Positions 30,630-38,267 of a stretch of DNA of 64,000 bases are shown here, in pieces (position 1 is the first letter of the stretch; each line of letters begins with the position of its first letter). Position numbers and translations under genes: made by a program. The notes under the pieces were generated by a model. It ran no database searches and was not told the DNA's origin. It worked only from the letters and a program-made list of their open reading frames with translations. The stretch lies in IMG/VR virus record IMGVR_UViG_3300044630_006741. The stretch is one strand, 5' to 3'. The stretch comes from an uncultured virus (IMG/VR IMGVR_UViG_3300044630_006741). Lineage: Duplodnaviria > Heunggongvirae > Uroviricota > Caudoviricetes.

Positions 30630-31451
30630 ATGAAAAACGTACATTTGTTACCAACAGACAAACCAAGCAGGTTATATAACAATAATGGTCAATTGCATTT
30701 AGATAGTGTTTCAACAACTTCTAATGGACATACGATTAACCAAAACATCTACATCACTAATGATGAGGAGATTAAATTTGATGATTATTATTTAGGTGAA
30801 GATAATAATCTTTATTGTTTAGTATCTAAAGTTAATTCTAATGGTAAAAAAATCATTTTAACAACAGACCAAGAATTAATAGATGAGGGTATTCAACCTA
30901 TAGATGATGAGTTCTTAGAATGGTTTGTTAAGAATCCAAATTGTGAGGAAGTTTTTCTTACTTATGAGTATGTGCAAGTCAATCAAGGCAATCCAATATT
31001 AAGAGGTAGTACTAATGTATCACATAGGTACGAAATCATCATTCCACAAGAAGAACCTAAACAAGAAACACTCTCAACTAAATTGCATATAGGTGAAGTA
31101 GTTGATGAATCATACCCAGAAGCATTTAGAAAACAAGAAACACTTGAAGAACCTAAACAAGAAACACTCTCAACTAAATTGCATATAGGTGAAGTAGTTG
31201 ATGAATCATACCCAGAAGCATTTAGAAAACAAGAAACACTTGAAGAAGCTGCTATTTTAAACTGCCAAAGTATAACTCATCCTTATTGTGATAGAGAAAA
31301 ATTAATGTTTATTAAAGGTGCTAAATGGCAAGAGGAGAGAATGTATAATGAGGAAGAAGTATTAGAAATCATAAGACAATATGCTCTTGAAGAACATTTA
31401 ATAACATCAAGTAAACCTGATATATGGTTTGAACAATTTAAAAAGAAATAG
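30630..31451 (+). CDS. hypothetical phage protein with internal 96-bp tandem duplication
   Basis: MKNVHLLPTDKPSRL...KQETLEE; 31050-31145 equals 31146-31241. Confidence 0.8.
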   Translation: MKNVHLLPTDKPSRLYNNNGQLHLDSVSTTSNGHTINQNIYITNDEEIKFDDYYLGEDNNLYCLVSKVNSNGKKIILTTDQELIDEGIQPIDDEFLEWFVKNPNCEEVFLTYEYVQVNQGNPILRGSTNVSHRYEIIIPQEEPKQETLSTKLHIGEVVDESYPEAFRKQETLEEPKQETLSTKLHIGEVVDESYPEAFRKQETLEEAAILNCQSITHPYCDREKLMFIKGAKWQEERMYNEEEVLEIIRQYALEEHLITSSKPDIWFEQFKKK

Positions 31452-31454
31452 GTT

Positions 31455-31832
31455 ATGATACAGGACAAAGAAAATCAAACACCACCAATAGCTGCAGCTA
31501 TCGTAGTAATGGCAATATTAATTGGAATCTCATTTGCTATTTTTAAAGCGGGGGAACGTGGAGCCTCCGATAAACAACATTATGAGCAACCCGCTATCTC
31601 AGACTCGGTAAAACCAGCTCCAGAACAACCCCATGAATCAAAGGAGGATAGTTTAATAAAACAGCTATATCCTATTTGTGTGGTTGAAGTAAATAAATCT
31701 ACTCATAAAGAGTATAAGTGGGAAGTGGTAGCAGAGAATGGTTTGATGTATTATACCAATAAGAAACCAAAAATTGGTGATCCTGCTTTTTATATCGGCA
31801 GTGACAGCGAAACGTTATATTGGACTAAATAA
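31455..31832 (+). CDS. membrane-anchored hypothetical protein
   Basis: N-terminal TM segment. Confidence 0.7.
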   Translation: MIQDKENQTPPIAAAIVVMAILIGISFAIFKAGERGASDKQHYEQPAISDSVKPAPEQPHESKEDSLIKQLYPICVVEVNKSTHKEYKWEVVAENGLMYYTNKKPKIGDPAFYIGSDSETLYWTK

Positions 31833-31853
31833 GTTACGGATAAAGAAGAAAAA

Positions 31854-31979
31854 ATGGATCGAATAGAAATACACTGGATGACACTTATAGTAAGTACAGT
31901 CTTATTAGCGCTACTGTTAGCCCGTCTTATAAAGGAACACATACAGGAAAAGCGCTGGGAAAATAGAAATCGTAAATAG
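31854..31979 (+). CDS. 41-aa membrane peptide
   Basis: MDRIEIHWMTLIVSTVLLALLLARLIKE... Confidence 0.5.
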   Translation: MDRIEIHWMTLIVSTVLLALLLARLIKEHIQEKRWENRNRK

Positions 31980-32007
31980 AAAGTTACGGTACAAAGATAA
32001 AACAACT

Positions 32008-32193
32008 ATGGAGAAGTTAATAACGAAATTAAAGACCTTGCAAGACAGGCAAAAGGAATTAATGTCTATGATGGCAGAAGAAAAGTATGACAATTTTATT
32101 TCCGTTTTAAGGGCTAAAGGATATGCTGATAGCATTATAGAATTAGAGGCAAAAATAGAAGTTTTAATGGATGCTATATCCATATTAAGATAG
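32008..32193 (+). CDS. small coiled-coil protein
   Basis: ORF track. Confidence 0.6.
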   Translation: MEKLITKLKTLQDRQKELMSMMAEEKYDNFISVLRAKGYADSIIELEAKIEVLMDAISILR

Positions 32194-32211
32194 CAGTAAA
32201 ACAATATACAT

Positions 32212-32303
32212 CGGTGTTACTGCGGGAATCACACATATATTTGCAAAATAAATTAAAAAAGGATCTGAAAAAGACCGAAACAAAAAAGAGAATCTGATAT
32301 ATA
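32212..32303 (+). promoter_or_regulatory. tandem promoters of tRNA operon 1 (early-type and GAAAC...GATATATA type)
   Basis: CGG-N8-CGG-N10-TATATTTG at 32212-32243; GAAACAAAAAAGAGAATCTGATATATA at 32277-32303, similar to 35795-35820. Confidence 0.7.
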
Positions 32304-32314
32304 AAAACCAAACA

Positions 32315-32464
32315 ATGAGAAACACTCAGAAAAATATGGCAATTATTAACCCGGCGAATCCGAAAGGATTTATCGCAGAGGCAGTGAAGCAGCAAGGCTT
32401 TTTTGCGTGGGAGAAAGGGATATGCCCAGGTCTGGAGTTTCGATTTAGTTTACAGGAAAGATAA
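32315..32464 (+). CDS. 49-aa attenuator leader peptide of tRNA operon 1 (not in ORF track)
   Basis: MRNTQKNMAIINPANPKGFIAEAVKQQGFFAWEKGICPGLEFRFSLQER*; residues 5-36 use only the 12 amino acids of the downstream tRNAs. Confidence 0.8.
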   Translation: MRNTQKNMAIINPANPKGFIAEAVKQQGFFAWEKGICPGLEFRFSLQER

Positions 32465-32521
32465 GATTTAAACTAAATATCACATTGAAACTCCAGATCG
32501 AAAGTCTGGAGTTTTTTTTTT
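32429..32521 (+). terminator. antiterminator/terminator pair (attenuator 1)
   Basis: terminator AAACTCCAGA..TCTGGAGTTTTTTTTTT 32488-32521; competing helices 32429-32441/32487-32499 and 32443-32452/32469-32478. Confidence 0.85.
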
Positions 32522-32525
32522 ACAT

Positions 32526-32599
32526 GGGGTTATAGCTTAAATCGGTGAGAGCGACGGTCTGAAAAACCGTAGATCCGGACTCGAGGCCCGGTATCCCCA
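32526..32599 (+). tRNA. tRNA-Phe(GAA)
   Basis: ACGGT-CTGAAAA-ACCGT anticodon arm; atypical T-loop. Confidence 0.85.
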
Positions 32600-32640
32600 C
32601 AAAAGAATCTGATCAACGGATTAGATGCAGAAGATTAAAT

Positions 32641-32714
32641 ACATCATTGGTGAAATTGGCTAATCATCTTGGACTCCAAATCCAAGGTTCTGGGTTCGAA
32701 TCCTAGATGGTGTG
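32641..32714 (+). tRNA. tRNA-Trp(CCA)
   Basis: TTGGA-CTCCAAA-TCCAA; GGTTCGAATCC. Confidence 0.9.
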
Positions 32715-32747
32715 CAGAAATAAGTTCTTTGACATATTGGAAACCAT

Positions 32748-32820
32748 AATTCCTTAGCTCAGTTGGTAGAGCGCCTCCCTTACATGGAGGAGGCCGCAGG
32801 TTCGAGCCCTGCAGGGATTA
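32748..32820 (+). tRNA. tRNA-Val(TAC)
   Basis: CCTCC-CTTACAT-GGAGG. Confidence 0.9.
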
Positions 32821-32829
32821 CTTAATTAT

Positions 32830-32902
32830 GCTCGGTTCGTCTAGAGGCCTAGGACATCCCCCTTTCACGGGGAAAACATGGATTCGAATTCCATACCGAG
32901 TA
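32830..32902 (+). tRNA. tRNA-Glu(TTC)
   Basis: TCCCC-CTTTCAC-GGGGA. Confidence 0.9.
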
Positions 32903-32975
32903 CAAACATATTAAACAAGAAATTGCCTCGCTAAACTAACCAGGTTTAGCAAGACAAAAACAGGTTTAGCATAAT

Positions 32976-33063
32976 GACCTCGTGGCGCAATTGGTAGCGC
33001 AACTGACTTTTAATCAGTAGGGAAGCTGTATAGCCGTTGTGGGTTCGAGCCCCACCGGGGTCA
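32976..33063 (+). tRNA. tRNA-Lys(TTT) with unusually long variable region
   Basis: ACTGA-CTTTTAA-TCAGT then about 20 nt of variable region. Confidence 0.85.
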
Positions 33064-33065
33064 CT

Positions 33066-33181
33066 TTAGCGATGGTGGTAACGCGCTTTGAGGAGAAAGT
33101 AGCTTTGGACCTGCAAGTCCAGTCAAGCGAAGAGTATCCAATTAGGAGGATAATTCCACTCGTCACTTGCAGGTGACGTAA
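33066..33181 (+). ncRNA. putative structured RNA inside tRNA operon 1
   Basis: non-coding GC-richer spacer with hairpins GGAC-CTGCAA-GTCC and CGTCACTT-GC-AGGTGACG. Confidence 0.4.
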
Positions 33182-33183
33182 AT

Positions 33184-33257
33184 GGGGTAGTAGCTCAGCT
33201 GGTTAGAGCACATGACTGTTAATCATGTGGTCATAGGTTCGAATCCTATCTACCCCG
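33184..33257 (+). tRNA. tRNA-Asn(GTT)
   Basis: CATGA-CTGTTAA-TCATG. Confidence 0.9.
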
Positions 33258-33264
33258 CTAAAAA

Positions 33265-33337
33265 GCGGAAGTAGCTCAATTGGTAGAGCGCGGCCTTGCC
33301 AAGGCCGAGGTTGCCGGATCATTCCCGGTCTTCCGCT
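33265..33337 (+). tRNA. tRNA-Gly(GCC)
   Basis: CGGCC-TTGCCAA-GGCCG; atypical T-loop ATCATTC. Confidence 0.9.
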
Positions 33338-33345
33338 CAAAAAAT

Positions 33346-33418
33346 GCGATAGTAGCTCAATTGGTAGAGCACCGTCCTTCCAAGTCGGGGGTCGCAGGTT
33401 CGAGCCCTGTCTATCGCT
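33346..33418 (+). tRNA. tRNA-Gly(TCC)
   Basis: CCGTC-CTTCCAA-GTCGG. Confidence 0.9.
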
Positions 33419-33429
33419 CACCCAAAGAT

Positions 33430-33501
33430 AGCGAGGTAGCTCAGAGGCAGAGCAACCGACTCATATTCGGTAGGTCAGGATCTCGGAATTCCTCCTCGCT
33501 A
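33430..33501 (+). tRNA. tRNA-Met(CAT)
   Basis: ACCGA-CTCATAT-TCGGT; atypical T-arm; Ile2 identity not excluded. Confidence 0.8.
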
Positions 33502-33507
33502 CTATAT

Positions 33508-33578
33508 TGTCCCTTCGTCTAAGGGCAGGACAGCTGATTTTGATTCAGCTAATGGTGGTTCGAATCCATCAGGGACAA
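33508..33578 (+). tRNA. tRNA-Gln(TTG)
   Basis: GCTGA-TTTTGAT-TCAGC. Confidence 0.9.
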
Positions 33579-33589
33579 CAATTTAAAAT

Positions 33590-33664
33590 ACTCAGGTAGC
33601 TCAATTGGTTAGAGCACCTCGCTGATACCGAGGAGGCCTGAAGGTTCGAGTCCTTCTCTGAGTA
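33590..33664 (+). tRNA. tRNA-Ile(GAT)
   Basis: CCTCG-CTGATAC-CGAGG. Confidence 0.9.
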
Positions 33665-33671
33665 CTTAATT

Positions 33672-33746
33672 CGGGATGTAGATCAGTTGGATTAGATCGC
33701 CTGGTTTGGGACCAGGAGGCCGCAGGTTCGAGTCCTGCTATCCCGA
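33672..33746 (+). tRNA. tRNA-Pro(TGG)
   Basis: CCTGG-TTTGGGA-CCAGG. Confidence 0.9.
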
Positions 33747-33753
33747 CTAAAAT

Positions 33754-33826
33754 GGGCCGGTAGCTTAAGAGGCTAAAGCGCTGCACTTGCAATGCAGAAT
33801 ATTGGGTTCGAGTCCCACCGTGTCCA
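33754..33826 (+). tRNA. tRNA-Ala(TGC)
   Basis: CTGCA-CTTGCAA-TGCAG; G3:U70 pair. Confidence 0.85.
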
Positions 33827-33834
33827 CTAAATTT

Positions 33835-33907
33835 GCTCTCATAGCTCAATGGTCAGAGTCGGACGCTTATATCGTCAAGGTTGCAGGTTCGAGTCCTGTT
33901 GGGAGTA
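33835..33907 (+). tRNA. tRNA-Ile(TAT)
   Basis: GACG-CTTATAT-CGTC; canonical T-arm. Confidence 0.8.
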
Positions 33908-34034
33908 CAAGTTTCCAATATAAAATTAAAAGTTCATCTGGTTTTCTGCGGAATCCTGTTCTATATTTGTAAAGTAATTAAAAACTTAGGCATGAAGGAA
34001 GGAAAGGAGTTTAAACTAAAAAAGGGTAACTAGA

Positions 34035-34133
34035 ATGGATCAAATCGGACACGTCGTTCTCTTTACAATAATAGGATTGCTAATAGCAATGTTAGTATAT
34101 CTAGCGGCATGGCAACCTAAAAAATGGAAATAA
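34035..34133 (+). CDS. 32-aa membrane peptide
   Basis: MDQIGHVVLFTIIGLLIAMLVYLAAWQPKKWK*, downstream of CGG-N10-TATATTTG at 33949. Confidence 0.5.
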   Translation: MDQIGHVVLFTIIGLLIAMLVYLAAWQPKKWK

Positions 34134-34355
34134 TGGGATACTGGCTCTGGGCAGATTGAAAACACACAGGTTAAAATCCTGTACTGATTACAAAAATAAA
34201 ACCTCAACAAATAAAGTTGTGAGTTGTATTGAAATAGCCAATTATAAGCCAACATAAAGCTGTTGGGTGCAGATGGAGTAATTAACCAGGAGCGCAGGCA
34301 CTGATTGTGACGGTACAACAAATACCCCTCTGAGTTTGGGTTTTATTTTAAATAT

Positions 34356-34453
34356 AGTTAGGTGGCGGAATGGTAGACGCACAAGACGGGCGATGCATTT
34401 AAAACAGAAATAAGCCTGGTCGGTTTTTACAGGTTCGAATCCTGTCCTGACTG
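34356..34453 (+). ncRNA. tRNA-scaffold RNA, copy B
   Basis: AGTTAGGTGGCGGAATGGTAGACGC-[insert]-TACAGGTTCGAATCCTGTCCTGACTG. Confidence 0.75.
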
Positions 34454-34466
34454 CTAAAAGAAAGTT

Positions 34467-34709
34467 ATGAATAAAATAGAGAATTACAATTTTGACAAAA
34501 ATGATTGGGCACATTTCCATGATGTTATTTTAGATGTGACTTGGAATGATGGTAAAGTGAATCTAAATCAAAAAGAAATGGAACAATTATTTTGGGAGTT
34601 ACCAGAAGATATGAGAATTGATGCTCAAAAATATGGTATGAATGATACACCTTGGAGAGATAGTCTGCGGGTATGGTATGAACGAAATAAAATGGGTAAG
34701 ACTGTTTAA
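34467..34709 (+). CDS. hypothetical protein
   Basis: 80-aa ORF between scaffold RNAs. Confidence 0.7.
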   Translation: MNKIENYNFDKNDWAHFHDVILDVTWNDGKVNLNQKEMEQLFWELPEDMRIDAQKYGMNDTPWRDSLRVWYERNKMGKTV

Positions 34710-34724
34710 TTGGTTATAAAACAT

Positions 34725-34843
34725 AGTCAGGTGGCGGAATTGGTAGACGCTGCTGTGGGGCGACACCACTCTTTTAAAAACAGCATAAGCTCTTGCAATG
34801 ATGTACACATTGCAAGGTACAGGTTCAAGTCCTGTCCTGACTA
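34725..34843 (+). ncRNA. tRNA-scaffold RNA, copy C
   Basis: AGTCAGGTGGCGGAATTGGTAGACGC-[insert with TGCTG/CAGCA and CTTGCAATG/CATTGCAAG stems]-TACAGGTTCAAGTCCTGTCCTGACTA. Confidence 0.75.
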
Positions 34844-34924
34844 CTCTGGGCTCAGTAAAGCCTCTTATCGTAAGATAACGTAACTGAAGTGGATAACCTA
34901 GAAATAGGTGACGCTCCACTATGG

Positions 34925-35004
34925 AGTCAGGTGGCGCAATTGGAAAACGCAACTCGCGGTGTACACAGAGGAGTGAATTACAGGTTCGAGTCCTGTCCTG
35001 ACTA
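34925..35004 (+). ncRNA. tRNA-scaffold RNA, copy D
   Basis: AGTCAGGTGGCGCAATTGGAAAACGC-[short insert]-TACAGGTTCGAGTCCTGTCCTGACTA. Confidence 0.7.
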
Positions 35005-35219
35005 CACGTTCCGACTAATCATCGGATAGTATGCCTCATACGATGAGAAGTGGTGTGATAGCCACAGAGGAGAGTTGAAGGTTCGTATATACAAACCTTC
35101 CAGTTGACTACTGACGTCGGTAAAACCCTTCACGAGGGGAGCAAGACAGTCTATTCCTAACTCAGCAATGAGGACAGCCATATCACCTGTAAGTTGGATA
35201 AATTAGGGTGTTTTTATAT

Positions 35220-35382
35220 AGTCAGGTGGCGGAATTGGTAGACGCTATCGTACTCAAGTAAGGCAAAGCAATGTAGATGAAACGTCGTCGCATGGTGAGT
35301 TAACACCTAAAAGTCTTTGGACTTGAAATCCAAAAAACCTTGAGTATGTTCTACGATACAGGTTCGAATCCTGTCCTGACTA
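35220..35382 (+). ncRNA. tRNA-scaffold RNA, copy E
   Basis: same ends; about 110-nt insert closed by TACTCAAG/CTTGAGTA. Confidence 0.75.
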
Positions 35383-35407
35383 CAAAAATTAAAATCTAAG
35401 GTAATAA

Positions 35408-35689
35408 ATGAAATGCTACGAATGTAAACACAGAGGAAATGTAATAGGCTCAGCTCATAGCAGCTGTGGTGTTATCAGAAGCACAGGTAGTGAGAAGGGA
35501 CAGGAGTTAGAATTCATGCTGGCGATGGGGCAGGTCGAAATGAAAGATCAAGATGGTAACCCTATTGTTGATATAGACCCTCATGGTATTCAAAACGGAT
35601 GGGCTGCTTGGCCTATAGATTTCGATCCAGTTTGGATAAGATCCTGTAAATTCTATACAGAAAAAGAGAAAACAGGTGAATTGAAATAA
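35408..35689 (+). CDS. small Cys-containing hypothetical protein
   Basis: CYECKHR...AHSSC...GWAAWPIDFDPVWIRSC. Confidence 0.75.
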   Translation: MKCYECKHRGNVIGSAHSSCGVIRSTGSEKGQELEFMLAMGQVEMKDQDGNPIVDIDPHGIQNGWAAWPIDFDPVWIRSCKFYTEKEKTGELK

Positions 35690-35698
35690 ATAACATAT

Positions 35699-35772
35699 GC
35701 TACCGTGGTGTAACTGAATAACACGTCTAACTACGGATTAGAAGAGCGAGGGTTTGAATCCTTCCGGTAGTA
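35699..35772 (+). tRNA. tRNA-Arg(ACG)
   Basis: TCTAA-CTACGGA-TTAGA. Confidence 0.85.
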
Positions 35773-35830
35773 CAAAAAATAATCGAAATTAGAAGAAACA
35801 AAAAGATGTTCTGATATATAATAACATAAT

Positions 35831-35923
35831 ATGAAAAACTTGATCCATACATCCTTACATTTATCCACCACGAGTACCACTTGTGATTCGGATTTATTGT
35901 GGAGGAGGCTAATGGATCAATAA
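35831..35923 (+). CDS. 30-aa attenuator leader peptide of tRNA operon 2 (not in ORF track)
   Basis: MKNLIHTSLHLSTTSTTCDSDLLWRRLMDQ*; residues 6-23 use only H,T,S,L,C,D, the amino acids of the downstream tRNAs. Confidence 0.8.
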   Translation: MKNLIHTSLHLSTTSTTCDSDLLWRRLMDQ

Positions 35924-35975
35924 TAATATTGAATTTTGATTCTGAAAAAGCCTCCCCTAAAAAGGAGGCTTTTTT
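35904..35975 (+). terminator. antiterminator/terminator pair (attenuator 2)
   Basis: terminator AAAAAGCCTCC-CCTAAAAA-GGAGGCTTTTTT 35945-35975; competing GGAGGCT at 35904-35910 inside the leader ORF. Confidence 0.8.
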
Positions 35976-36005
35976 ATTGGCTCTTTGATTTATTAGATTT
36001 AACAC

Positions 36006-36089
36006 GGAAGAGGAATCACAGCGGCCTGTGAGCTAGTCTTGAAAACTATGCGTACCTCCGGGTATTGGGATCGACACCTACCTCTTCCG
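36006..36089 (+). tRNA. tRNA-Ser(TGA)
   Basis: TAGT-CTTGAAA-ACTA, long variable arm, G73. Confidence 0.8.
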
Positions 36090-36097
36090 CTTTTTCC

Positions 36098-36173
36098 GGG
36101 GCCTGTGGTGTAATGGCTTGCATAACACACTGTCACTGTGTAGGTCGGGGTTCGAATCCCCCAGGTCCCGCCA
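36098..36173 (+). tRNA. tRNA-Asp(GTC)
   Basis: ACACA-CTGTCAC-TGTGT; encoded CCA. Confidence 0.9.
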
Positions 36174-36175
36174 AT

Positions 36176-36263
36176 GGAAGATGATCCTAAACGGAGATAG
36201 GATCCGCCTGCTAAGCGAGATGTTCGGGTAAAACCGGATGAGGTTCGATCCCTCCGTCTTCCG
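36176..36263 (+). tRNA. tRNA-Ser(GCT)
   Basis: CGC-CTGCTAA-GCG, long variable arm. Confidence 0.8.
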
Positions 36264-36268
36264 CAAAC

Positions 36269-36341
36269 TCCAGAGTAGCTCAATTGGTAGAGCCCTTGTT
36301 TTGTAAACAAGTGGTTGTCGGTTCGATTCCGTCCTCTGGAT
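36269..36341 (+). tRNA. tRNA-Thr(TGT)
   Basis: CTTGT-TTTGTAA-ACAAG. Confidence 0.9.
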
Positions 36342-36346
36342 CTAAT

Positions 36347-36419
36347 GACACCGTGTCTGAATGGTTTAGGTCCAGGTCTGCAAAACCTTGGTACGTGGGT
36401 TCGAATCCCTCCGGTGTCT
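36347..36419 (+). tRNA. tRNA-Cys(GCA)
   Basis: AGGT-CTGCAAA-ACCT; U73. Confidence 0.9.
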
Positions 36420-36425
36420 CTATAT

Positions 36426-36500
36426 GGTGTCTATAGTGTCAGCGGTATAGCACGACGGGTTGTGGTTCCGTTAGCACCAGTTCGAATCTGGTTAGACACA
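36426..36500 (+). tRNA. tRNA-His(GTG)
   Basis: ACGGG-TTGTGGT-TCCGT; G-1 present. Confidence 0.85.
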
Positions 36501-36507
36501 CTAATAA

Positions 36508-36592
36508 GCCCCGGTGGCGAAACAGGCTATACGCACCAGACTTAAGATCTGGCGATCAGTGAATCGTGTGGGTTCGAATCCCACCCGGGGTA
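36508..36592 (+). tRNA. tRNA-Leu(TAA)
   Basis: CCAGA-CTTAAGA-TCTGG, variable arm. Confidence 0.9.
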
Positions 36593-36624
36593 CATAATTT
36601 TTTGTACTTTGATATATAGGTATT

Positions 36625-37224
36625 ATGATTGAAGGATACAAAAAATACCAAAACGGATTTGTCAAAGACCCAGCTTCTTACTTGTTAAAAGAAGAAGAAA
36701 ACGTTACTGCCAGCACAAGCCTGGTAACACCGAAAACTCTTAATGATTTTTCGGAATCAATATCATCCTCCCTGAATGAGAGAATCGGTGACGAGTATGC
36801 TGCTCACTATTTCTATAGAAATGCTGCCAATTGGTGTAAAAATGTCAATTATAAAAATGCCACAGCATATTTTGAAGCTGAGGCTGCCAGCGAATTAGAT
36901 CACGCTAAGGGATTACAAGACTACCTGACACAGTGGAACCTAATGCCTGCTATTCCTGCTGCTCCAACGCAGCATTCTTTTGAAAATCTAGCAGATATTA
37001 TCAATAAGGCTTACGAGATAGAGTATGAGTTAATGCTTAAATACTCCGACAATCAAAAAGAGTTCTTAAATGATCACCCAGCAACTTTCAATTTTATTCA
37101 GAAATATGTTGATATACAGAATGAAGCTGTTGCTGAATACTCGGATCTTTTAAATGCTCTTAATCTAGTGGACATCAACAATAGATTGGATGTCCTTTAC
37201 TTCGAGAACAATTACTTCGGATAG
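36625..37224 (+). CDS. ferritin-like protein with N-terminal extension
   Basis: LNERIGDEYAAHYFY...EAASELDHA...AYEIE...QNEAVAE ferroxidase pattern. Confidence 0.85.
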   Translation: MIEGYKKYQNGFVKDPASYLLKEEENVTASTSLVTPKTLNDFSESISSSLNERIGDEYAAHYFYRNAANWCKNVNYKNATAYFEAEAASELDHAKGLQDYLTQWNLMPAIPAAPTQHSFENLADIINKAYEIEYELMLKYSDNQKEFLNDHPATFNFIQKYVDIQNEAVAEYSDLLNALNLVDINNRLDVLYFENNYFG

Positions 37225-37238
37225 TAATTAGTTACCCG

Positions 37239-37658
37239 TTACAATTCTTTAGAAAAGGTTAGACCCGCATATCCTCTCGAGAAATCGAAAGAGAAGTTCG
37301 TGTTTGGTATGTAAACTGATGCTCCTAAATATTTACTATTTCCAGTTTCATCCTGCCAATCGTCTACGTATATCTCAATTCCCTTGTTTGCCAATAAGTC
37401 TGAAGCTTTGGATATGAAATCTGGATCATCTGGCTTAAACTTTATGATCTGCGATTTTATTGACGAGTCCATTGATATCTTAGGTACGTTCAGCAGAGAT
37501 TTTTTAAAATCAGAATTCATCTTTAGATAGTCGACTTTACCAAATTTTGGAGCCTCTATCTTAAAATTAGTTAGAGACATTTTTGGATCTGGTTTAACTG
37601 TGGTAGACTGCCCACCCTCATTTATAAAATCTTCGAAAAGTTTTATGTTTTTCATCAC
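37239..37658 (-). CDS. tagged hypothetical protein
   Basis: MKNIKLFEDFINE; GATATATA upstream. Confidence 0.8.
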   Translation of the reverse strand: MMKNIKLFEDFINEGGQSTTVKPDPKMSLTNFKIEAPKFGKVDYLKMNSDFKKSLLNVPKISMDSSIKSQIIKFKPDDPDFISKASDLLANKGIEIYVDDWQDETGNSKYLGASVYIPNTNFSFDFSRGYAGLTFSKEL

Positions 37659-37757
37659 TGATTTTTTATTTTATATATCGAGAGAATCCCTTTGTAAATG
37701 AATAAATAAAGGAGGACCCGGATTTTTAAGGGTTCTTTTCAGTATAATAAAAGAACT

Positions 37758-38267
37758 ATGGAAAATCGACTTGACGGTAACTGGAGAAGACTAACAGATT
37801 CACAAGAAATTGAATTGCTGTCTTATATTAAATCCTGGATGGACGAAAATCCAGGACACAAGATCTATATTGGATGTGACTCCCAAAACAAGGGCAGATC
37901 TACAACTTATGCAACTGTCATAGTTCTACACTATCCTAGCGGTGGTGGACACGTCTTGTACAAAAAAGAGAAAATCGAAAAGGTGTCATCCAGTTTCGAG
38001 AGGCTCTGGAAAGAAGTAGAGCTTAGTGTGGAAATTGCTAATCTTTTAATAGATTCAGGTCTAGGTAAACCCGATTGCATAGACGTCGATCTAAATCCAG
38101 ATCCGAGATACAACTCAAATCAATTACTAAGAGCAGCTGTTGGTCTTATAGAATCCATGGGGATTCAGGCTAGATATAAATCGAAATCGCCATGGGCTAT
38201 TAGTATAGCTGACACTATGTGTAAAAGTAAGACGGGTAAGAAACCAAGAAAAAAACCAGTTAGATAA
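37758..38267 (+). CDS. RNase H-like YkuK (DUF458) family protein
   Basis: IYIGCDSQ...YATVIV...RLWKEVELS...IDVDLN...IAD. Confidence 0.8.
   Translation: MENRLDGNWRRLTDSQEIELLSYIKSWMDENPGHKIYIGCDSQNKGRSTTYATVIVLHYPSGGGHVLYKKEKIEKVSSSFERLWKEVELSVEIANLLIDSGLGKPDCIDVDLNPDPRYNSNQLLRAAVGLIESMGIQARYKSKSPWAISIADTMCKSKTGKKPRKKPVR

Follow-up and report, generated by a model that had tools for sequence, protein, structure and literature searches.

What controls the transcription of the tRNA genes that phages carry? Two explanations for the presence of these genes are put forward in PMC10264068 and PMC11555353, compensation of codon usage and evasion of host defences that cleave tRNA. The control of these genes has been little studied. 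We have analyzed a stretch of 64,000 nucleotides (nt) of an uncultured virus of the class Caudoviricetes (IMG/VR record IMGVR_UViG_3300044630_006741; the whole stretch is called here the window), in which two tRNA clusters are found, both on the + strand. Each of them is preceded by a short open reading frame (ORF), leader 1 and leader 2, made up to a large extent of the amino acids that the tRNAs of its own cluster carry. The question is why a phage should place such an ORF, followed by a transcription terminator, in front of its tRNA genes. The answer that we propose, to which we give a probability of roughly 0.7, is that both leaders act as multivalent ribosome-mediated transcription attenuators, each for its own tRNA cluster, and that the transcription of these tRNAs would be driven by demand.

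A leader made of the amino acids of the downstream tRNAs

Leader 2 is a small ORF of 30 codons plus the stop (Table 1) that begins at the first ATG past the core of a promoter-like element. Its residues 6 to 23 are exclusively His, Thr, Ser, Leu, Cys and Asp, the six amino acids of cluster 2, and downstream of the leader only tRNAs are found as far as the next promoter at 36611. These six amino acids represent 30.3% of the residues in the long ORFs of the window (100 amino acids or more), what gives a naive probability of 4.6e-10 for a run of 18. When the 64 kilobases (kb) were translated in six frames, this was the longest run of the cluster 2 set, the second longest having 10 residues. Mononucleotide shuffles of the 54 bases of the run never gave 18 out of 18 (0 of 200,000, the best reaching 16), and the five other frames across it contained between 2 and 6 cognate residues of 17-18, indicating that base composition is not the explanation for the run.

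The codons point in the same direction. Inside the run all four Leu codons belong to the TTR box, matching Leu(TAA), while the share of this box among the Leu codons of the long ORFs is 0.37. Three Ser codons are TCN and one is AGT. Over the whole leader, UUR is used in five of the six Leu codons, and the exception, codon 27, is located within the antiterminator described below. The initial annotation of this DNA had claimed a run restricted to six amino acids, with only TTA and TTG for Leu, both Ser boxes and a chance near 4e-10, and on all these points our results agree with it.

Table 1. Coordinates of the leaders, their RNA elements and the tRNA genes that follow them in the window
Feature	Start	End	Strand	Basis
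Promoter-like two-part element of leader 1, same type as that of leader 2	32277	32304	+	
Leader ORF 1, 49 codons; codons 5-36 use only the 12 cluster 1 amino acids, all 12 present	32315	32464	+	
Antiterminator of leader 1, helix of about 24 pairs between ORF codons 39-47 and the terminator 5' arm	32428	32499	+	
Intrinsic terminator 1, -15.6 kcal/mol	32487	32520	+	
tRNA cluster 1: Phe, Trp, Val, Glu, Lys, Asn, Gly, Gly, Met(CAT), Gln, Ile, Pro, Ala, Ile(TAT)	32526	33908	+	ARAGORN, Rfam
Promoter-like two-part element of leader 2: A-rich box (35795-35804) and core of 8-9 nt (35813-35821)	35795	35821	+	
Leader ORF 2, 30 codons plus stop	35831	35923	+	
Sensing run of leader 2, 18 codons, six cluster 2 amino acids only	35846	35899	+	
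Hairpin of 7 pairs within leader ORF 2, then U-rich sequence	35869	35885	+	Minimum-free-energy structure
Antiterminator 5' strand of leader 2, codons 24-30	35901	35920	+	
Antiterminator 3' strand of leader 2, overlapping the terminator 5' arm	35936	35957	+	
Intrinsic terminator 2: stem of 11-12 pairs, loop of 8 nt, six T; -15.6 kcal/mol	35944	35975	+	
Degenerate copy of the conserved pre-tRNA element of about 20 nt	35981	36005	+	
tRNA-Ser(UGA)-like gene, cloverleaf with 8/4 acceptor/T stems and long variable arm	36006	36089	+	Fold
tRNA genes of cluster 2: Asp(GTC), Ser(GCT), Thr(TGT), Cys(GCA), His(GTG), Leu(TAA)	36098	36593	+	ARAGORN, Rfam

Leader 1 and its relatives

A similar situation is found ahead of cluster 1. 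Here the longest run of the cluster 1 set in the six frames of the window is that of leader 1, with 32 residues (the next has 19), and none of 200,000 shuffles reached it. The amino-acid sets of the two clusters do not overlap and together cover 18 amino acids. Leader 2 had been announced as a second instance of the design of leader 1, and this description holds: the two share the type of promoter, a terminator and an antiterminator, and their amino-acid sets are complementary.

Leader 1 could be followed in other samples. We found six database proteins 75-100% identical to it, two of them with a two-residue insertion that keeps the frame, and seven metagenome contigs that carry it; IMG/VR gave no match to it. 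In the five contigs that reach far enough, the same tRNAs are located behind the leader. In three contigs the DNA upstream of the promoter is unrelated and the promoter, the ORF and the terminator are retained. Among the seven relatives, the variable sites within the run are distributed as 5, 5 and 15 over codon positions 1, 2 and 3, a signature of coding sequence. The core of the antiterminator (codons 40-45) is invariant in the 8 sequences aligned. So are codons 23-30 (32381-32404), third positions included, that form a small hairpin followed by six U. This hairpin with its U run may be a pause site for the polymerase, synchronising ribosome and polymerase, and the hairpin inside leader ORF 2 may likewise be an RNA polymerase pause site.

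For leader 2 the comparison was restricted to close copies. Contigs of four metagenome runs carry only near-identical copies of the window DNA, and among the differences listed a single one affects the leader 2 region, a one-base deletion at 35934 in one run. Neither leader 2 nor cluster 2 is present in the seven metagenome loci with leader 1. In GenBank phages, blastn gave only short matches to tRNAs. No tRNAs were seen close to the relatives of the neighboring ferritin-like gene (14 IMG/VR loci) or to the 93-codon gene in the one locus found with it (L001), and four whole contigs of these neighbor-gene loci contain only 0-5 tRNAs.

Competing RNA structures at the end of the leaders

In both leaders the segment of the last codons repeats the 3' arm of the terminator and can pair with its 5' arm. 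In leader 2, the 7 nt at 35904-35910 are identical to the start of the terminator 3' arm and complementary to 35949-35955. The antiterminator is formed by 35901-35910 with 35949-35957, stacked on a helix of 7 pairs (35914-35920 with 35936-35942) that encloses the stop codon at 35921-35923. Both the sequestering heptamer and the pair of heptamers bracketing the stop codon had been pointed out in the initial annotation, and they are found as described. A simple consensus scan did not list terminator 2 on the + strand. For leader 1, the fold of lowest energy of the entire transcript is the antiterminator helix. Terminator 1 ends 5-9 nt ahead of tRNA-Phe, leaving no space for a promoter, so that cluster 1 can be reached only by read-through.

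In order to compare ribosome positions, we folded the transcript ending before the terminator 3' arm with a mask of 28 nt around each codon in the aminoacyl site. For leader 2 the occupancy of the antiterminator was 0.55-0.80 with codons 1-21 at this site, 0.15 at codon 22 and 0 from codon 23 on. For leader 1 it was about 1.0 up to codon 35 and about 0 at codons 40-45. The folding thus predicts that a stall inside the run would keep the antiterminator and that reading to the end of the ORF would free the terminator. In both leaders the cognate run ends where a stalled ribosome could no longer cause read-through, and the non-cognate residues that follow are located in the segment whose sequence is fixed by the pairing of the RNA. 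The competition between terminator and antiterminator that had been postulated for leader 2 is reproduced in silico, and the antiterminator is lost at the position of the ribosome where the run ends.

Leaders ahead of tRNA clusters in other phages

We searched IMG/VR for the promoter pattern shared by the two leaders and obtained 101 instances at 100 loci, 22 of them with tRNAs on the same strand within 1.5 kb. Four leader families (10 loci) were followed; L026, L029, L030, L034, L037, L055, L059, L062, L076, L083, L087 and L102 stayed outside. The tRNA regions of five IMG/VR contigs (G005 to G009), with 18-32 tRNA matches each, were then examined under one rule: a leader is the ORF from the first ATG past a promoter core that precedes a tRNA cluster. 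This gave eight leaders that, with the two of the window, make the ten compared here. Homology was seen only between those of G006 and G007, the remaining ones being dissimilar in sequence. A further ORF of 11 codons (L123, from 2580) was kept outside the ten, the next tRNA being about 760 nt away.

The ten ORFs have 19-49 codons and are followed by terminators of -10.3 to -20.8 kcal/mol that begin 19-34 nt past the stop. In all of them the occupancy of the antiterminator drops near the end of the ORF. The binomial probability of the cognate fraction for the own cluster was between 3.6e-6 and 0.07. When every peptide was compared with every cluster, the z-scores of the own clusters summed to 27.7, a value reached by none of 200,000 permutations of the pairing, and in a random-peptide simulation P(both) went from 0.039 down to none of 400,000. 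Eight of the ten leaders contain all the amino acids of their cluster, the extreme case being 16 out of 16. In leader B of G009 a cognate run of 27 residues follows the initiator Met and, with this Met, holds all 16 amino acids of the cluster; the first three amino acids to break the run are among those that the cluster lacks. We defined the sensing zone as the codons from position 8 on where a stall would keep the antiterminator. Pooling the ten leaders, 161 of 176 codons in this zone are cognate (91%) versus 50 of 82 behind it (61%; Fisher P 1.6e-8). The initial annotation had named, as evidence against its reading, homologous operons in which the ORF was missing or its composition unrelated. 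The comparison turned out in favor of the reading: across the five contigs we found non-identical leaders ahead of clusters of different make-up, and the composition of these leaders changes with the cluster.

These numbers bear on the possibility that the ORFs simply code for small proteins that have some independent function, their resemblance to the tRNA sets being accidental. The good conservation of the leader 1 peptide (the six proteins mentioned), the concentration of its variation at third codon positions and the frame-keeping insertion in two of the six proteins speak in favor of it. Nonetheless, chance is excluded by the random-peptide simulation and the pairing permutations, and the ten peptides are unlike one another save for the G006 and G007 pair, what they have in common being the rule that ties each one to its own cluster. 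Besides, the leader 2 peptide lacks a relative among 1.84 billion cluster representatives, where the only hit was one unrelated protein of 356 residues (E 8e-5). We consider this explanation very improbable.

Another alternative inverts the logic, with translation of the leader needed for read-through, for example if a ribosome near the stop codon blocked the terminator hairpin. Terminators blocked by the ribosome are a known design, as in the pyrBI leader. In all ten cases, however, the terminator 5' arm is located 19-34 nt past the stop, beyond the reach of a ribosome standing there, and an explicit antiterminator exists that a ribosome near the end of the ORF destroys. This inverted scheme is, in our opinion, hardly credible.

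An additional case comes from GenBank. LR756502.1 is an uncultured phage sequence of 642 kb (locus L129 is 372709-378791 of it) that carries no annotation. At locus position 2712 begins an ORF of 24 codons in which 10 of 23 residues are Ser or Arg (P 1e-4), followed by a terminator-like hairpin. Behind the hairpin come, in this order, tRNA-Arg, an 8/4 Ser-like element, tRNA-Ser and tRNA-Arg.

The match extends to the anticodon box

Leu, Ser, Arg and Ile (ATA versus ATY) are codon families that can be split by anticodon. Of the 67 leader codons for these amino acids, 54 fall in the box read by an anticodon of the own cluster, when 38.6 would be expected from the codon usage of the window (P 6e-5). 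Most of the 13 mismatches are among the first six codons or behind the zone. The two leaders of G009 provide the clearest example. Leader A uses only TCN for Ser, AGA in two of three Arg codons and ATA for the two Ile past codon 6, and the anticodons of cluster A are Ser(tga), Arg(tct) and Ile(tat). In leader B, which is located ahead of Ser(gct), Arg(acg) and Ile(gat), these three amino acids are written exclusively as AGY, CGN and ATY. CGN is a rare choice in the window, with 55 codons versus 523 AGR. For Leu, Ser, Arg and Ile the agreement across phages extends to the codon box, suggesting that the signal is probably the decoding capacity of individual tRNA species, rather than amino-acid supply.

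The same data allow judging whether the leaders could be general sensors of translation capacity, comparable to the antibiotic-responsive leader ORFs, that would react to any slowing of the ribosome. Any stall within the zone would keep the antiterminator, and the leaders of large clusters use 15-16 amino acids, being nearly pan-amino-acid, as such a sensor might be. But neither the exclusion of non-cognate amino acids nor the agreement with codon boxes would be required in a general sensor. In the window each of the two leaders covers a separate set of amino acids, and in the G009 pair even the boxes of Ser, Arg and Ile are divided between the leaders. We regard a general sensor as improbable.

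Promoter-like sequences and the pre-tRNA element

The core of the leader 2 promoter-like element is located 9 nt ahead of the ATG. Its 8-nt version occurs 18 times in the window, mostly just upstream of an ATG, including those of protein genes, indicating that both leader ORFs stand where this phage places translated genes. The extended form, with the A-rich box 8-9 nt upstream of the core, appears in the window only ahead of the two leaders, at 32277-32304 and 35795-35821, in accordance with the likeness between the two promoters noted originally. As a separate observation, the core is often just 6-20 nt before an ATG that lacks a Shine-Dalgarno sequence (18 sites, for example 8013, 28665 on the - strand, 36611 and 37679 on the - strand), so that the mRNAs would carry very short 5' leaders or none.

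In several distinct phages some of the tRNA genes are preceded, at a distance of 22-28 nt, by a second conserved element, of about 20 nt. It is found behind five of the ten leader terminators and also inside clusters, 8-14 nt past the preceding tRNA. The sites are 32726-32747 and 35981-36005 in the window, 1565 and 8481 in L123, 1980, 4014 and 4367 in L127, 1713, 2173, 3067 and 11974 in L128, and 6413 in L017 and L019. This element could be a second promoter, for a phage polymerase, or a processing signal.

If it were a promoter, the terminators might be ordinary insulators against upstream transcription, with the tRNAs transcribed from their own pre-tRNA element and the small ORF irrelevant. 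The position of the element before the first tRNA in half of the units (22-28 nt), its presence inside clusters and the fact that terminator 2 always forms at equilibrium (see below) agree with this idea, as does the A tract before and the T tract after terminator 2, like in a two-way terminator. Left unexplained, on the other hand, would be the match of ten leaders in composition and anticodons, and also the end of the cognate run precisely where the antiterminator begins. Moreover, leader 1, leader B of G005 and the leaders of G006 and G007 have only 4-11 nt between terminator and tRNA and lack the element, and each ORF has its own promoter directly ahead. We think that simple insulation is unlikely.

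Proposed mechanism and points that weigh against it

Going back to attenuation, the steps for leader 2 would be as follows. Transcription would start from a phage promoter a few bases before the ATG, and a ribosome would translate the 30-codon ORF while the RNA polymerase advances, in the coupled way that such a switch presupposes. Codons 6-23 would sample the codons of the downstream tRNAs: Asp, Ser in both boxes, Thr, Cys, His and Leu-UUR. Scarcity of any one of the sampled aminoacyl-tRNAs would stall the ribosome inside the run, and the last codons of the ORF, left free, would pair with the terminator 5' arm; no terminator would form and the polymerase would read through into the tRNA genes. 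With fast decoding, the ribosome would cover the antiterminator 5' strand up to the stop codon, the terminator hairpin would then form 21 nt downstream of the stop and transcription would end. If the response runs in this direction, the outcome would be a negative feedback by which the phage replenishes precisely those tRNAs of which the infected cell is short. Possible triggers might be the decay of host tRNAs during infection or defence systems that cleave tRNA.

Several results weigh against this proposal. Some concern the RNA. When full-length leader 2 was folded, the terminator formed at every position of the ribosome at equilibrium, and therefore the switch of leader 2 would need to be kinetic; its outer antiterminator helix has just 7-9 pairs and is weaker than the terminator. 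Kinetic action of antiterminators is accepted for classical attenuators. The 20-nt element, if a promoter, would let part of the tRNA transcription bypass the attenuator. Others concern the codons. Each amino acid is sampled by just 1-5 codons. Codons 2-7 of the ten leaders are cognate in 38 of 60 cases (63%), similar to the background, and according to the model a stall there would also yield read-through. Among the relatives of leader 1 there are 17 distinct replacements within the run, of which 13 stay within the cluster 1 set and 4 fall outside (Thr9, Ser12, Thr12 and Cys20), a proportion that is not clearly above the 61% background, the tRNA sets of these relatives being partly visible. 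We found no diverged homologue of leader 2, either among the cluster representatives searched or in the metagenome loci with leader 1.

The remaining points come from the comparison among phages. With a strict definition of cluster (gaps of at most 300 nt), four of the ten leaders lose significance (P from 0.066 to 0.56), and leader A of G008 is weak under either definition (P 0.07 and 0.3). In L127, from 8378, a promoter and a 20-codon ORF precede a lone tRNA-Ile with no evident enrichment in Ile on inspection, and at 1330 of L126 a promoter is located before Ala-Leu tRNAs without any ORF. Finally, in L026, L030, L034, L037, L059 and L076 the ORF between the promoter and a tRNA-Ala has 57-60 codons, begins with a hydrophobic stretch and does not resemble a leader.

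The Ser-like gene and the genomic setting

Between the terminator of leader 2 and the first gene of cluster 2 in Table 1 there is a region (36006-36089) for which neither ARAGORN (four option sets) nor Rfam (E up to 10) called a tRNA. The initial annotation had counted seven tRNAs downstream; six are supported by both programs, while the seventh, Ser(TGA), was not called, though it folds as a cloverleaf. In the minimum-free-energy fold of 36006-36094 (-31 kcal/mol, z -3.2) the gene is a class-II cloverleaf with an acceptor stem of 8 pairs, a T stem of 4 pairs, a long variable arm and a UGA anticodon loop. The acceptor branch of 12 pairs split 8/4, the long variable arm and the serine anticodon are what defines the (8/4) tRNA-Ser. 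Clusters in L123 and L128 begin with canonical Ser(tga) genes, and these share the stretch of the anticodon loop with the gene in the window. tRNA-Ser of (8/4) shape has been published for bacteriophages (PMC5389517), and in the traits given there, 8/4 stems, variable arm, serine anticodon and location in a phage cluster, the gene in the window is alike. This likeness refers to the fold, and the D arm is unusual in the minimum-free-energy fold, with a stem of 6 pairs and a loop of 4 nt. We consider it a putative tRNA-Ser(UGA)-like gene.

The window is GC-poor (38%) and belongs to a large phage-like genome from lake water; metagenome runs from lakes and fresh water contain near-identical DNA. 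Matches to PHROG families, mostly of unknown function, were obtained for many ORFs of the window, including a tail-fibre-like N-terminus and an ATP-dependent protease. Upstream of leader 2 are a 93-codon gene and a tRNA-Arg (35408-35773). In cluster 1, ARAGORN identified all the listed tRNAs except Met(CAT), which was added by Rfam at 33430-33501 and has the anticodon loop CAU, corresponding to Met.

Further upstream of leader 2, at 34356-35382, Rfam detected four over-long or irregular tRNA-like genes (98, 119, 80 and 89 nt); by ARAGORN one has a 4-base anticodon and two have long predicted introns. These units recur within the region and in relatives, and contigs of other runs skip 110-975 nt between them, what suggests the presence of inserts or mobile pieces in tRNA genes. 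Close relatives show insertions of about 700-800 nt between tRNA-Glu and tRNA-Lys (L017 6619-7415, L018 2432-3228, L019 6590-7270), and the equivalent place in the window (32903-32976) has none. The tRNA clusters of this phage group are thus interrupted by inserted DNA, clusters that are otherwise identical being split in relatives by mobile insertions of 700-800 nt.

Odd tRNAs were also seen in the other phages. Contig G009 (L128 6463-6534) has, by ARAGORN, a tRNA with anticodon TTA, reading the UAA stop, and L029, from another huge-phage contig, has a CTA-type ('Pyl') tRNA (locus 2184-2259); both may be suppressor tRNAs. In cluster A of G008 (L127 3552-3625) Rfam found a tRNA with 36.5 bits, the anticodon arm of which has 18 nt, not 17, and no normal loop of 7 nt.

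Meaning and comparison with known systems

If true, the proposal would imply that decoding capacity feeds back directly on the supply of tRNAs, and would extend the classic principle of attenuation from the synthesis of amino acids to the tRNA pool. The sequence of a leader predicts which tRNAs share one transcription unit, and its match is an argument that odd tRNAs, the 8/4 Ser-like gene among them, are functional. The leaders also offer simple sensors of codon-specific translation stress. More tentatively, we can speculate that large freshwater phages in general might produce tRNAs on demand by means of anticodon-matched 'pangram' leaders that sense decoding capacity species by species, and that these would be built-in sensors of immunity directed against tRNA (anticodon nucleases) or of host tRNA decay.

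In the full-text literature searched we found no published control of tRNA genes by leader peptides or attenuators, in phages or in bacteria. The main text of PMC10264068, on phage tRNAs, does not contain 'attenuat', 'leader', 'terminator' or 'promoter'.

There are nevertheless well-known systems with which the leaders can be compared. The upstream ORFs of erm, cat and whiB7 are attenuators that respond to antibiotics or stress and resemble the phage leaders in that stalling on a tiny ORF switches an RNA structure controlling the downstream genes. They differ in responding to drugs or to translation stress in general, and in having a codon content that bears no relation to the downstream product. 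T-box riboswitches likewise tie genes of translation supply to the state of a specific tRNA through a choice between terminator and antiterminator, although the T-box binds the uncharged tRNA directly and has no ORF, whereas in the phage leaders the proposed sensor is the ribosome. The T-box model of Rfam gave no match in 31000-38000 at E up to 1.

The closest parallel is with the attenuators of amino-acid operons. Multivalent cases are known among them, such as the thr leader (Thr and Ile) and the ilv leaders (Leu, Val and Ile). None of the Rfam families of amino-acid leaders (Thr, His, Leu, Trp and Phe) was above threshold, the best being Phe_leader with 27.7 bits versus the 55 required (E 0.2), over the terminator. 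In these attenuators and in the phage leaders alike, a short ORF is located between a promoter and an intrinsic terminator, on the same strand and upstream of the regulated genes, and the regulatory codons are cognate to what the operon supplies. In both, the antiterminator is kept by a stalled ribosome and destroyed by one that completes the ORF (in silico in our case), and coupling of transcription to translation is required. The phage leaders depart from this model in being carried by a phage and in that they would regulate tRNA genes, not enzymes. Instead of runs of one to three amino acids they sample 5-16, each of them one to five times, and the match reaches the anticodon box.

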